Both the position numbers and the translations under genes were made by a program. DNA of 64,000 nt from Bacillota bacterium. GTDB taxonomy: Bacteria > Bacillota > UBA5301 > JAMCQP01. Positions within the stretch are counted from its first letter, which is position 1. Each line of letters opens with the position of its first letter. The notes beneath the pieces were generated by a model. That model ran no database searches, had not been told where the DNA came from, and saw nothing but the letters and a program-made list of their open reading frames with translations. Location of the stretch: the NCBI GenBank assembly GCA_023381695.1, contig JAMCQP010000034.1, positions 72,617 through 136,616 of the forward strand, given 5' to 3'. Positions 2,905-7,100 of the stretch are shown here, in pieces.

Positions 2905-4302
2905 TTGCTCACCAGGCGGGAATTCATCAAGCTTTGCCTGAGCGCCACCGCCTCCCTGACGTTATCCCAATCATTGGCTGTTGAAATCGCCAAAGCCTTC
3001 GCCGGGGCGAAGAAGCCGCCGGTAGTCTGGCTGGAAGCCTGCACTTGCACCGGGGACATCCTCTCCTTTGCCAACACGATTAATCCCGACCTGGGGAAAT
3101 TTATCTTCGAGACCATCGACCTCCTCTACAACAACACCTTGATGAAGGCCCAGGGCGCCCAGGCCATCGAAGTGCTGGAGAACGCCCTGGAAAAACGGCG
3201 CGGTGAATACATCCTGGTGGTGGAGGGGACCGTCCCCACCCGTGATAACGGTCGGTACAATATCATCGGGGAGCGCAACGGGCATGCCTGGACGGCACTG
3301 GAGGCCACCCGCAGGCTGAGCGAGGGAGCGCAGGCGGTGATTGCCGCGGGCACCTGCGCGGCTTTTGGGGGGATTTATGCGGCATCTCCGAATCCCTCGG
3401 ACTCCAGGCCGGTTCATAAGGTGGTCAAGCAGCCGGTGATCAACGTGCCGGGTTGCCCCGCTCATCCCGACTGGTTGATGGGGACCATTACCCATCTGCT
3501 GTTTTACGGCCGGCCGGAACTTGATGCCCACCACCGCCCGAAGCTCTTCTTCGGGGAGACCATTCACAACCTTTGCCAGCGCCGTTCCTACTTTGACAAC
3601 AGCATCTTCGCCAAATACCCCGGCGACGGGGGATGCATGTATCAGATCGGGTGCAAGGGGCCGGTTACACATGCGGATTGCCCCAAGCGGCTCTGGAGTG
3701 GGGAGCATGTCAACTGGCCGGTTCAGGCTAACACTCCTTGCATCGGCTGCTCCAGCCCGGAATTTACCGACGGGCTTGGCCCTTTCTTTGTGCCGCTTCC
3801 CGCGACCCCTTTGCCGCGGATTACCACCACCGCCAACCGGGTTGGAGGAGCGGTGGCGGTGGCGACGGCCCTGGCTATCGGCGGGCATCTTGCGGGGACG
3901 GTGCTTACCGGGCGCCTGGGCAAGGGCGCCCAAACCGACGAGGACATTGCCGGAGTGGGGGCCGGTGAAGCAACTGGCGAAGACGCAAGTGGAAAGGAAT
4001 CCAGCGATTCCAGCGGGCAAGAGGCCCGGACCATGGAAGAACAATTCACGAACATTACCTCAAACGTCAAGAAGGCTCTCAAAAAGCGTTCATCCGTATT
4101 AAACTCCGCCGAGATAGAATCTGTTCCGCAAGTACCCAAATATCCCGGTCAAAAGCGCCGCCGGCCCAAATTTATCAGGCCCAGACCACTCCATTACTGG
4201 CCCAAAGATGACGGAACGCCAGATAAAGAGCGACGGGAAGCGAGACAGCCAAACGGGTCTTCCGAGCCCTCGGACAGGGGGGATGACGATGGCTCCAGAT
4301 AA
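2905..4302 (+). CDS. [NiFe] hydrogenase small subunit with Tat signal, C-terminal TM anchor and a long charged tail
   Basis: TTG start after a GGGGGGTG SD. Twin-arginine motif LTRREFIKL. Fe-S ligand motifs GTCAAFGG, PGCPAHPDW, GCKGPVTHADCP and PCIGCSSPEF. A hydrophobic helix (VGGAVAVATALAIGGHLAGTVL) is followed by about 129 charged/disordered residues. Confidence 0.85.
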   Translation: MLTRREFIKLCLSATASLTLSQSLAVEIAKAFAGAKKPPVVWLEACTCTGDILSFANTINPDLGKFIFETIDLLYNNTLMKAQGAQAIEVLENALEKRRGEYILVVEGTVPTRDNGRYNIIGERNGHAWTALEATRRLSEGAQAVIAAGTCAAFGGIYAASPNPSDSRPVHKVVKQPVINVPGCPAHPDWLMGTITHLLFYGRPELDAHHRPKLFFGETIHNLCQRRSYFDNSIFAKYPGDGGCMYQIGCKGPVTHADCPKRLWSGEHVNWPVQANTPCIGCSSPEFTDGLGPFFVPLPATPLPRITTTANRVGGAVAVATALAIGGHLAGTVLTGRLGKGAQTDEDIAGVGAGEATGEDASGKESSDSSGQEARTMEEQFTNITSNVKKALKKRSSVLNSAEIESVPQVPKYPGQKRRRPKFIRPRPLHYWPKDDGTPDKERREARQPNGSSEPSDRGDDDGSR

Positions 4303-5707
4303 AACTCTGGTCACCATCAACCCGGTCACCCGTTCCAATGGGCTTTTAAAGGTAGAGGTGGAGGTATCCGGCGGCAAGGTGACGGATGCCCGCTGCTCCG
4401 GGATCTTCTTCCGCGGTTTCGAGTTGATCCTCCAGGGAAGGGATCCCCGGGACGCCGGGTACTACGCGGAACGGATCTGCGGCATCTGTTCCACCGCGCA
4501 TGCCACCGCGGCAGCCATGGCCCTGGAGGACGCCGCCAAGATCCAGGTCAGCGACAATGCGGTGTTGCTGCGCAACCTGATCTTTGGGGCCGACTTTCTG
4601 CAAAACCATCTCCGGCACTTCTTCTTCCTGGGGCTGCCCGACTACATCGACACCCCGGAGATCCCGCCATTTACGCCCCATGGAGCGCAGAGGGCGTCCT
4701 TGCCCAGGGCGATCAACGACCGGATGATGGAGCATTACCGGGAGTCTTTCCGGGCGAGCCAGATGGCCCATGAGATGACGGTGATCTTCGGCGGGAAGGC
4801 TCCGCATGTGCACGGGATTGTTCCCGGTGGGGCCTCGGTAAAGCCGACCATTGACAGGGTGACCCGTTTTGGTGCAGCTTTGGAGGAGGTACACCGGTTC
4901 ATAGTCGAAAAGTATCTTCCGGACGCCATGACGCTGGGTGAGTATTATCCGGAGGACTTTCAGCTTGGCACGGGTTACCGGAACCTGATCGCTTTCGGAC
5001 TCTTTCCGAAACCCGGCCACCCCGGCATCTGGACTTTCCCCCCGGGAATCGCCAAGGACGGGATGCTGGAGGAGGTTGATCAGAAGGCGATCCAGGAGGA
5101 TATCAAGCATTCCTGGTTTAGGGAGCAACCGAAACCTGAAAATCCATGGGAAGGAGTCACGGTTCCCGACCTCGAAAAAGAAGAAGGATACTCCTGGGTG
5201 AAAGCCCCCCGTTACCGGGGCATGGCCCTGGAGTGCGGGCCGCTGGCCAGGTTGTGGGTCCGGGGCGACTATCGCCGGGGGATTTCCACCCTGGACAGGG
5301 TGATGGCCCGGGCTCAGGATGCGAAGAAGATCAGCGAACACATGAAAGAATGGCTGGAGATGCTTCATCCGGATGCGCCCACCTATACCCCCTTTGAAGT
5401 GCCAAAGAATGCGGAGGGGATCGGGCTTACAGGAGCCATGCGCGGCCCGCTGGGCCACTGGGTGCGGATCGAGGGTGGACGGATCGCGCATTACCAGATC
5501 GTCACGCCCTCAGCCTGGAACTTTTCGCCCCGGGACGGCCGGGGGGTGCGCGGCCCGGTGGAGGAGGCGCTGATCGGCACGCCGGTGGCGGATCCGGCCA
5601 ACCCGGTGGAGGTGGGCAGGGTAGTCCGATCCTACGATGCCTGCCTGGCTTGCGGGACCCATGTTTTTGAACCGGGTCGCGGACTGACCGCTTTCCAGAT
5701 CTTTTGA
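4289..5707 (+). CDS. [NiFe] hydrogenase large subunit
   Basis: N-terminal Ni-binding motif RICGICSTAHA and C-terminal DACLACGTH, followed by a 14-aa extension. ATG 4289 lies 6 nt after a G6 SD and overlaps the small-subunit stop by 14 nt. The ORF-track start at 4208 is unlikely. Confidence 0.9.
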   Translation: MAPDKTLVTINPVTRSNGLLKVEVEVSGGKVTDARCSGIFFRGFELILQGRDPRDAGYYAERICGICSTAHATAAAMALEDAAKIQVSDNAVLLRNLIFGADFLQNHLRHFFFLGLPDYIDTPEIPPFTPHGAQRASLPRAINDRMMEHYRESFRASQMAHEMTVIFGGKAPHVHGIVPGGASVKPTIDRVTRFGAALEEVHRFIVEKYLPDAMTLGEYYPEDFQLGTGYRNLIAFGLFPKPGHPGIWTFPPGIAKDGMLEEVDQKAIQEDIKHSWFREQPKPENPWEGVTVPDLEKEEGYSWVKAPRYRGMALECGPLARLWVRGDYRRGISTLDRVMARAQDAKKISEHMKEWLEMLHPDAPTYTPFEVPKNAEGIGLTGAMRGPLGHWVRIEGGRIAHYQIVTPSAWNFSPRDGRGVRGPVEEALIGTPVADPANPVEVGRVVRSYDACLACGTHVFEPGRGLTAFQIF

Positions 5708-5731: not shown

Positions 5732-6397
5732 TCAGTTTTGAGCCTTTTTGCGGGTGATGTACCCGGTGAACATGGCGGCGAGCTTATCCCAGTCCTGGGT
5801 GGTGGCCAGGTAGATGTGCGCGCTGCTGGAGGCGGCGATGGCCACCGCGGTGAGGAAATGGAGGTACCGCACATGGTTCAGGCCGCCCAGGAGCGCCGCC
5901 AGCCTTTGAAACCGGGCCGGAGCATATACGGTAAACCCTGTAATGATCTGGACGGCGATAAAGACCATCCAGCTTGAATAGAGGAGCTTTTGTAGCGCGT
6001 TATACTTTCCGCAGGGCGGCATAGTCTTGGCCAGGAAAAGGTAGTAGAGCATCATCCCGGGTATGGCGCTGATGTCCTGGATCTGGAACCAGACTTCGGA
6101 GTAGTAGCCGGTGGCCAGGATGTAGTAGAGCCGGAATAGAAAGACCGCCACCAGAAGATAGGCTGCTGTAAAGTGAACCAGCCGGGCGCTGTCCATGGTC
6201 TGAAAGCCCAGGTACGGGGTTGGGCGAAAGATATAAAAACCGCTGATGATCTCGGTAGTAAAGATCAGAAATAGGGCCAGGACCTGCAGCCTTACCCCGA
6301 GCGGCTGCCGGAGAACTTTCTCGGGAGAGGCTTTTCCTCCTGCAGGTTTCAGGCGGTTTGCCGGCGAACCCAAGTAACACCATCCTTCGGGGTACAA
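5732..6397 (-). CDS. b-type cytochrome membrane subunit (Ni/Fe-hydrogenase / formate dehydrogenase gamma, PF01292-like)
   Basis: Polytopic protein. The C-terminal half (NALQKLLY..ITGFTVY..LLGG..VRYLHF..SAHIYLA..MFTGY) resembles HyaC-type cytochrome b as I remember it. The start codon is uncertain (TTG at 6397). Confidence 0.6.
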   Translation of the reverse strand: MYPEGWCYLGSPANRLKPAGGKASPEKVLRQPLGVRLQVLALFLIFTTEIISGFYIFRPTPYLGFQTMDSARLVHFTAAYLLVAVFLFRLYYILATGYYSEVWFQIQDISAIPGMMLYYLFLAKTMPPCGKYNALQKLLYSSWMVFIAVQIITGFTVYAPARFQRLAALLGGLNHVRYLHFLTAVAIAASSSAHIYLATTQDWDKLAAMFTGYITRKKAQN

Positions 6398-6437: not shown

Positions 6438-7100
6438 CTATTCTCCGCAGCCCGTTAACGCGGTTTTGCTGATATGGATAACCTTAAAGCCATGGTGCTC
6501 CAGTTCGGCCAGGATGGGTTTCTCAGCCTCGGTCTTCAACCGCAGAACAACATTGGCTTTGTTTCCTTCAGGAAGGGGGAAGACCGCCAGGCTGATAATG
6601 TTCACGCCCTTTTCCTTGATAACCTGCGTAATCTCCGCCAGAACGCCTGGCTGATCTTCGGCCTGGACGGTAAGCCGCAACCCGGCCCGCCGGATGCCCA
6701 GAAGCTCGATAAAGGAGTCGAAGATATCCGTCTCGGTGATGATGCCCACCACCTTGCCGTTTTCCACCACCGGCAAACCCCCGATGCCGCGCTCGCGCAT
6801 GAGAAGCGCCGCTTCCTCGATGGTGGCGTCCGGAGAGATGGTTGCCGGATCTTTGGTCATGGCTTCTTTGACCGTCATCCTGGAGATCAGGTAGTGAATC
6901 TCAAAGATGCTTAGGGAAGTGGCCGGTGACGGCGAGACCCGCATCAGGTCAAGCTGGGTTACGATTCCCACCAGCTTTTGCCCCTCGGTAACGGGGAGCC
7001 GCCGGATCTTTCGCTTTATCATCAGTTCCAGAGCCTCGGGAATCGGGGTGTTCGGGGTAACGCAGACTGGGTTGGCGGTCATGCGGTTTCGAACAAACAT
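6438..7100 (-). CDS. CBS-pair plus ACT domain protein (AcuB-like)
   Basis: Two CBS-like repeats (MTANPVCV..IRRLPV, MTKDPATI..IGGLPVV) precede an ACT-like C-terminus (LTVQAEDQPGVLAEITQVIKEKGVNI). Confidence 0.8.
   Translation of the reverse strand: MFVRNRMTANPVCVTPNTPIPEALELMIKRKIRRLPVTEGQKLVGIVTQLDLMRVSPSPATSLSIFEIHYLISRMTVKEAMTKDPATISPDATIEEAALLMRERGIGGLPVVENGKVVGIITETDIFDSFIELLGIRRAGLRLTVQAEDQPGVLAEITQVIKEKGVNIISLAVFPLPEGNKANVVLRLKTEAEKPILAELEHHGFKVIHISKTALTGCGE

Follow-up and report, generated by a model that had tools for sequence, protein, structure and literature searches.

A probable Tat-exported group 1a [NiFe]-hydrogenase of a Bacillota bacterium from a lineage without the proton-gate glutamate

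Introduction

Group 1a [NiFe]- and [NiFeSe]-hydrogenases are represented by solved structures from Desulfomicrobium baculatum (1cc1, 4kl8) and Desulfovibrio vulgaris Hildenborough (2wpn, 5jsh). They have a short large subunit of about 470-500 amino acids (aa), the L1 and L2 motifs, a canopy Arg, a Mg-site Glu (Glu45), a twin-arginine translocation (Tat) signal on the small subunit and a His-ligated distal cluster. The same set of features is found in a hydrogenase encoded on a 64,000-nucleotide (nt) stretch of the genome of a Bacillota bacterium (assembly GCA_023381695.1, contig JAMCQP010000034.1, positions 72,617 to 136,616 of the forward strand), which is called the window here and whose own numbering is used for its genes. 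Judged from sequence, the product of two window genes is probably a respiratory [NiFe]-hydrogenase for H2 uptake, exported through Tat and tail-anchored, that falls among the Bacillota enzymes of HydDB group 1a. Unlike the described group 1a enzymes, this hydrogenase has Asn in place of the gate Glu, Leu in place of the His of RIEGH and Asp in place of the second proximal Cys. By comparison of homologues, the Asn at the gate, the non-Cys residue at the second proximal position and an extension after the membrane anchor are hallmarks of a monophyletic lineage that keeps all catalytic residues. The oddities of the gene pair are thus read as a signature common to a large Bacillota lineage and not as peculiarities of the window.

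Mechanistic work on the Desulfovibrio and Escherichia coli enzymes regards the gate Glu as essential for [NiFe]-hydrogenase catalysis. An E14Q variant of the Hyn hydrogenase of Thiocapsa roseopersicina (group 1e) kept about 50% of its activity, and an Arg-Asp-His proton route was proposed (PMC3325256). The Gln of this variant was engineered into a canonical enzyme, whereas the replacement in the window is natural, lineage-wide and accompanied by fixed Y58, D102, N106, R109, H175 and M384. A proximal cluster with three Cys and one Asp is known from the group 1h enzyme of Cupriavidus necator (PDB 5AA5; PMC11023054). This enzyme resembles the window small subunit in the composition of its proximal-cluster residues, and it is distant (small-subunit E 8e-32). 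It differs further in being cytoplasmic, O2-insensitive and of low activity and in having no Tat signal.

Hyd-1 and Hyd-2 of E. coli and HydABC of Wolinella resemble the window enzyme in their Tat-exported small subunit, C-terminal transmembrane anchor and C-in topology. The cytoplasmic ends of these enzymes measure about 10-20 residues, whereas the tails of the window's homologues have a median of 60 aa and the window tail has 128 aa. The soluble Desulfovibrio enzymes differ from the window enzyme in that the latter has a membrane anchor and a 128-aa cytoplasmic tail. The convergent cytochrome b gene is a further difference from the group 1a systems. Named group 1a relatives include Hyd-1a of Calderihabitans maritimus and Hup of Dehalobacter, and relatives occur in the three-gene hupSLC layout. 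The Calderihabitans operon was called group 1a by its authors, and its enzyme most likely corresponds to the homologues P0077/P0214, a pair from one contig that is 52% identical. A Hup-type hydrogenase of Dehalobacter was also called group 1a by its authors and may be the homologue compared here.

Hydrogenase genes and the proton-gate position of the large subunit

The two hydrogenase genes contain the following features.

2905..4302, plus strand: small-subunit gene, 465 aa, TTG start with the ribosome-binding site GGGGGGTG upstream; PF01058, PF14720, TIGR00391
2905..3003, plus strand: predicted Tat signal peptide, residues 1-33, with TRREFIK and likely cleavage after AFA, as read from the sequence
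3028..3057, plus strand: N-terminal proximal-cluster motif WLEACTCTGD, residues 42-51, placed by alignment to solved structures and homologues
3832..3906, plus strand: C-terminal membrane anchor helix, residues 310-334 in the AlphaFold2 (AF2) model, with invariant His328 inside and invariant Arg337 after it
3916..4299, plus strand: cytoplasmic tail of 128 aa (K+R 24, D+E 23), mostly predicted disordered
4289..5707, plus strand: large-subunit gene, 472 aa, ATG at 4289; PF00374, E 9e-113
4322..4348, plus strand: PVTRSNGLL, large-subunit residues 12-20, with Asn17 at the proton-gate Glu site and Leu19 at the His site
4472..4501, plus strand: L1 motif RICGICSTAH, residues 62-71, with Ni-Fe Cys64 and Cys67; invariant in the Glu-less clade
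5636..5662, plus strand: L2 motif DACLACGTH, residues 450-458, with Cys452, Cys455 and cleavage-site His458; Cys, not selenocysteine
5663..5704, plus strand: large-subunit C-terminal extension VFEPGRGLTAFQIF, 14 aa after His458, the presumed substrate of a maturation endopeptidase

The genes overlap, with the small-subunit stop codon (4302) falling 14 nt within the large-subunit gene. The small subunit matched the TIGR00391 (hydA) model with 303.7 bits, which exceeds the model cut-off. Its twin-arginine motif TRREFIK occupies residues 3-9, and the mature chains of solved structures start aligning at residues 33-37. The original prediction, made from the letters of the window, had given the coordinates, the Tat motif, PVTRSNGLL, the length of 472 aa and the 14-aa extension, and the open reading frame calls and the sequence agreed with all of them.

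The large-subunit segment INPVTRSNGLLKVEVEV pairs without a gap with IDPLTRVEGHLKIEVEV of the solved [NiFeSe] enzymes 4kl8 and 1cc1. The proton-gate Glu has therefore given way to Asn17, and the His of RIEGH to Leu19, so that the E-to-N and H-to-L substitutions first noticed by eye are upheld, and the P-x-TRIEGH gate Glu that is canonical for group 1 is absent from the window large subunit. Both the L1 (RxCGxCxxxH) and the L2 (DPCxxCxxH) motif were recognized, with all four Ni-Fe Cys present, and the canopy Arg385 and Mg-site Glu45 are retained. A C-terminal extension of 14 aa follows His458, and such extensions occur across the Glu-less clade. The NCBIfam NiFeSe models NF045518 and NF033181 were the top matches, with scores under their cut-offs. 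No selenocysteine codon (TGA) is found at the first L2 position, where the frame is open and encodes Cys452. The window enzyme differs from the [NiFeSe] enzymes in having Cys in L2 where they have selenocysteine and in a medial site of the 3-Cys type (Pro272) where theirs is of the 4-Cys type.

Fe-S cluster ligands of the small subunit

The small-subunit segment PPVVWLEACTCTGD pairs without a gap with PPVFWLQGQGCTGC of 2wpn and RPSVVYLHNAECTGC of 1h2a, and the alignment with 1yrq is gap-free too. From these alignments, C48 is the canonical first ligand, Asp51 stands at the canonical second Cys position and Cys46, two residues ahead of C48, is additional. The canonical small subunit encoded in the same genome gives an identical register, with C48 on the first Cys and D51 on the second. 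A shifted CxC motif, as which WLEACTCTGD had originally been interpreted, is ruled out by the three solved structures together with the genome's own canonical subunit; the actual changes are a Cys20-to-Asp replacement and an incidental additional Cys. Among 120 homologues, 101 have Asp and 19 have Asn at position 51; at position 46 most have Met, Asn or Asp, and only two have Cys.

The proximal cluster residues are C48, C151 and C184, with Asp51 in place of the fourth Cys. The medial cluster has C259, C279 and C282 with Pro272, a 3-Cys site of the [3Fe-4S] type, and the distal cluster ligands H221, C224, C244 and C250 are all present. The supernumerary Cys19 and Cys120 (CTCC) that mark the O2-tolerant group 1d enzymes were not found: Cys46 precedes the first ligand by two residues, does not lie between ligands and is not conserved. 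In the Fe-S domain of the small subunit the AF2 model is poor, with a predicted local distance difference test (pLDDT) score below 50 at residues 49-56 and 244-311.

A lineage without the gate glutamate

The 120 large subunits closest to that of the window share 49-56% identity with it and come from Bacillota (Dehalobacter, Desulfoscipio, Desulfallas, Calderihabitans, Dethiobacter) and many metagenome-assembled genomes. Nearly all of them have TR-x-N, TR-x-H or TR-x-Q. A tree was built from 237 large subunits, comprising the closest homologues and 150 representatives from an exhaustive search. The Glu-less sequences form a clade of 138 of the 237 with support 1.0, in which the gate position is Asn in 109, His in 11, Ser in 8 and Glu in 1, and the gate Glu is missing in 137 of the 138 members. 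The Glu was found in 79/79 outgroup sequences retained in the comparison, a set chosen for Glu at that column. The expectation of a distinct lineage with an altered proton-gate position was thus borne out by the tree.

The clade keeps C64, C67, C452 and C455, the canopy Arg385, H71, the Mg-site Glu45, D450 and H390. This conservation of metal ligands and catalytic residues argues for working enzymes. Near-invariant residues specific to the clade are Tyr58, Asp102, Asn106, Arg109 (138/138), His175 and Met384. The window large subunit has every one of these clade-specific residues and a short branch, ranking second of 138.

A pattern scan of 185,579 species genomes returned at least 587 loci matching the clade patterns. 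Co-variation between the subunits was counted in the best 80 of these at least 587 loci plus three others. A large-subunit Glu pairs with small-subunit CxGC in 20/21 loci, and large-subunit Asn, Ser or His pairs with CxG[D/N/E] in 40/41 loci; the lone exception to the latter pairing looks like a pattern artefact and is probably WLECTGCSGN. From this near-perfect co-variation it follows that the loss of the gate Glu and the change of the proximal ligand arose and travel together. The N-terminal Cys loop of the small subunit lies near the gate region of the large subunit, which is consistent with the co-variation. A Planctomycetales locus (L081) combining Glu with CNGD is a possible intermediate.

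Small subunits of the window type (WLE...C-x-G-D/N) have the Tat RR motif in 73/79 cases, together with the anchor and the tail.

Classification

The large subunit matched solved structures of group 1a [NiFeSe] enzymes best (4kl8 and 1cc1, E 1e-125), followed by those of groups 1b (about 1e-99), 1c (about 1e-79) and 1d (about 1e-71). The best match of the small subunit among solved structures is also a group 1a enzyme (E 5e-68). Indirect support for placement in group 1a is provided by these nearest solved structures and by the labels that authors have given to relatives. The idea of a deep-branching lineage outside the known groups was not supported, as the lineage nests in group 1 with the [NiFeSe]/group 1a structures nearest to it.

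No paper on a natural Glu-less lineage with Asp or Asn at the proximal position in group 1a was found in literature searched without most subscription journals, which makes this weak evidence. The window enzyme seems typical of an already known group, whose Glu-less, Asp/Asn-proximal sub-lineage appears to be undescribed in the searchable papers.

Membrane anchor and cytoplasmic tail

An alignment of 50 small subunits shows no variation at His328 (3886-3888) in the anchor helix or at the following Arg337 (3913-3915). We take His328 to be reminiscent of the anchor-helix His required for quinone reactivity in Wolinella HydA. Beyond the helix the frame stays open for 128-131 residues, to 4302, in line with the long charged tail ending 14 nt into the large-subunit gene that had been predicted. 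Only frame 0 is open in this region; frame 1 is interrupted by 2 stops and frame 2 by 4. Chance does not account well for the open frame: a run of 130 stop-free codons has a probability of about 0.01 by our own arithmetic from base composition, and the codon score of the tail (0.099 per codon) lies above that of 99.3% of off-frame windows. The second half of the tail scores about zero (0.004 per codon). The tail is predicted to be disordered except for one helix at residues 370-399 (nt 4012-4101) in the AF2 model.

Among 119 homologues, the tails that follow the conserved TGR closing the anchor measure 10-128 aa, with a median of 60 and an interquartile range of 29-83, and the window tail (128 aa) is the maximum. 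Two sequence-conserved tail families with 28 and 24 members were recognized, and the window tail is a singleton. One of these families resembles TGRLGKHLVDGTRPRPEGIIRDIRKHSGD..KEVVF.P, whereas tails of the other contain a segment ELEE...ELEHKIRYLKDGRK that looks like a coiled coil. A basic cluster closes most of the tails. The best relative is 58% identical, and its alignment stops at residue 340. A search with the tail alone in 5.8 billion proteins matched nothing except the query itself, and no reading frame of 3880-4330 resembles the tail of any homologue.

A check for conservation of the tail in orthologues had been suggested with the original prediction, and its result is divided: homologues do extend past the anchor, and the sequence of the window tail has no counterpart among them. 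The view that a cytoplasmic tail on an exported hydrogenase is an unfamiliar arrangement stands insofar as no paper describing Tat-exported small subunits with cytoplasmic extensions was found in the literature searched; it falls insofar as such tails are common in homologues and not unique to the window. In our reading, the tail is probably translated and typical of the lineage as a feature, with a unique sequence that in this genome is either of recent origin or under weak constraint.

The sole same-genus genome compared (G001, a 92%-complete assembly) has no small-subunit homologue. This suggests either a patchy or laterally acquired locus or an assembly gap in that genome.

Maturation genes and genome context

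The genome is a draft of 122 contigs with 89.6% completeness. A profile search found no PF01750 protease on the contig of the window. Four HycI-type (PF01750) proteases were identified elsewhere in the genome, on contigs 47, 36, 91 and 100. The contig 47 protease adjoins a canonical group 1 operon, and the contig 36 protease adjoins another large-subunit gene. The proteases on contig 91 (L016, 3328-3903) and contig 100 (L017, 3512-4147) are orphans that match TIGR00072 above its cut-off and have no large-subunit gene adjacent. An insertion in the contig 100 protease divides its domain match into two. When the proteases adjoining Glu-less hydrogenases in other genomes were compared with these four, the best matches were always the contig 47 and contig 36 proteases, so that no cognate was singled out.

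In the canonical operon on contig 47 (L014, 4913-7644, and its flanks), the small subunit reads CSGC and the large subunit PVTRIEGH; cytochrome b, a protease and the products of hypA, hypB and hypF are encoded there as well. HypA, HypB and HypF are thus also available in the genome, and HypD is present in two copies. By its gene content, the organism is predicted to carry two exported uptake hydrogenases, one of the canonical Glu type and one Glu-less.

Bare small-large-cytochrome b (hupSLC) units without a protease were found in two of three relatives' operons examined or reported, whereas many other related loci have a protease adjacent downstream. The original prediction had rightly observed that no maturation endopeptidase gene adjoins the window hydrogenase. 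This absence is not puzzling, because relatives' operons are also bare and the genome encodes four HycI-family proteases.

The neighbouring cytochrome b gene

The gene for the candidate membrane partner lies 24 nt past the large-subunit gene on the opposite strand.

5732..6397, minus strand: b-type cytochrome, PF01292, convergent with the hydrogenase genes and without the helix-1 His

It lies 40 nt after a CBS/ACT gene (6438-7100) and may be co-transcribed with that gene. The cytochrome b gene is co-directional with the hydrogenase genes and its product has the helix-1 His in 16/16 relatives with a detectable cytochrome b.

Proposed function and alternative explanations

In the proposed mechanism, cytoplasmic maturation of the large subunit would rely on the Hyp proteins and on a protease from another part of the genome, and export via Tat would follow jointly with the small subunit. 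The C-terminal helix of the small subunit would hold the complex at the outer membrane surface of the cell. Electrons from H2 would cross the proximal cluster (three Cys and Asp51), the three-Cys [3Fe-4S]-type medial cluster (Pro272) and the His221-ligated distal cluster, and would then pass to a b-type cytochrome or the quinone pool. Protons would leave the active site without the canonical Glu, likeliest through a network of Arg385, Asp450 and His107 together with Tyr58, Asp102, Asn106, Arg109 and His175.

A broader and tentative proposal, judged slightly less likely than not, concerns the evolution of the lineage. The Bacillota lineage may have replaced the gate Glu and one proximal Cys jointly while five second-sphere residues (Tyr58, Asp102, Asn106, Arg109 and His175) became fixed simultaneously; its enzymes would then use a different proton route and a 3-Cys/Asp(Asn) cluster, and the tails of the Tat-exported members would be docking or regulatory modules. 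A natural lineage of hundreds of genomes lacks the gate Glu while keeping the other catalytic residues, and the loss is coupled tightly to the proximal-ligand change. Such a lineage is a ready test of alternative proton pathways and of the tuning of catalysis by the proximal cluster, and cultured carriers (Calderihabitans, Desulfoscipio, Desulfallas) make the question directly testable. The chemistry has precedents in the group 1h three-Cys and Asp cluster and in the Hyn Glu-to-Gln variant. For specialists, the point of interest is that gate loss and ligand change are coupled across the lineage, the window gene being ordinary for its lineage.

Several observations weigh against a respiratory H2-uptake enzyme. 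The window cytochrome b gene runs convergently, and its product has RLQVLAL at the site of the RxxH[WFY] motif that holds the helix-1 haem His in relatives. The L2 motif has DAC rather than DPC, a change of Pro to Ala, and a Glu-to-Gln exchange abolishes the activity of the Desulfovibrio fructosovorans enzyme, as cited in PMC3325256. By sequence, Asp51 and Cys46 are both candidate ligands of the proximal cluster, and the AF2 model has pLDDT below 50 at residues 49-56. The tail codon score stands at the 7th percentile of coding windows, with a GC content at third codon positions of 0.585 vs about 0.76 in the core. The single same-genus genome is without this locus. No identifiable member of the Glu-less lineage has a measured activity, and function is assigned from conservation.

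Part of these observations would be explained by a decaying or retired hydrogenase without respiratory function, in which a laterally acquired hupSLC unit was rearranged, its cytochrome b was inverted and lost a haem ligand, and the small-subunit stop was lost so that a former spacer is read through. This explanation is kept alive mainly by the convergent cytochrome b, which lacks the RxxH[W] His present in 16/16 relatives. It also draws on a tail with no homologue and a codon signal that is weak chiefly in the second half, on the same-genus genome without the locus, on the complete canonical operon on another contig and on the lack of an adjacent protease. It is nevertheless considered unlikely. 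Both open reading frames are intact, all metal ligands and lineage-signature residues are kept and the large-subunit branch is among the shortest in the clade; tail lengths of 60-130 aa are usual for the lineage, and an adjacent protease is also missing in two of the three relatives' operons. An artefact of assembly or annotation, in which a frameshift or sequencing mistake masks either a stop further upstream or a shorter, conserved tail, would fit the draft state of the assembly (122 contigs, 89.6% completeness) and a tail that is the longest of 119 and unique. Such an artefact is hardly probable, given that no other frame of 3880-4330 resembles homologue tails, that frames 1 and 2 are closed by 2 and 4 stops, that frame 0 outscores 99.3% of off-frame windows and that homologue tails reach 128 aa.

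A sensory role had been raised in the original prediction and was not substantiated. In this reading, a sensory, regulatory or otherwise non-respiratory hydrogenase would turn over slowly through gate loss, and its cytoplasmic tail would signal into the cell. The absent gate Glu, a long tail whose one predicted helix could serve docking and a cupin/HD-GYP gene located directly upstream (1867-2718) speak for it. Known regulatory (group 2b) hydrogenases have no Tat signal, no membrane anchor and no C-terminal extension of the large subunit, whereas all three are present in the window enzyme; linkage to a histidine kinase is a further mark of group 2b. Neither a kinase nor a response regulator is encoded in the operon or a kinase nearby, the tail is not conserved, a gap of 186 nt with a hairpin separates the cupin/HD-GYP gene from the small-subunit gene, and relatives occur in plain hupSLC operons. 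A sensory role is accordingly rated as very improbable, and the exported uptake hydrogenase is preferred.

Sub-types of related small subunits

Within the Glu-less clade, Dehalobacter-like small subunits (WLG...; large subunit ANNSC) have the Tat motif in 0/34 cases. This WLG type (P0204/P0060, L019 and L033 of Dehalobacter) retains the anchor and an operon cytochrome b, and its start lies about 12 residues ahead of the first Fe-S motif. Without the Tat motif, it becomes doubtful whether the enzyme faces the outside or the inside of the cell. As an obligate H2 oxidiser, Dehalobacter had been considered as proof of extracellular activity in the lineage; this candidate was dropped, and Dehalobacter physiology is not used as evidence for activity outside the cell, because the homologous small subunits are of the WLG type without a Tat motif. 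The Dehalococcoides-type Hup was likewise considered as a characterised member of the lineage and was ruled out, as the Dehalococcoidia relatives have the canonical Glu/CxGC combination. The same combination is found in the Planctomycetota relatives.

A large branch of Ser type in the Glu-less clade, with TRISGF in the large subunit and CSGN in the small subunit, occurs in Clostridium, Paenibacillus, Halobacillus and gut Lachnospiraceae (loci L045-L088 and others). Its small subunits have neither a Tat signal nor an anchor, and these enzymes are presumably cytoplasmic. Several members of the Ser type have a Cys two residues ahead of the first ligand (CGCSGN), with the CxC spacing also seen in the window.

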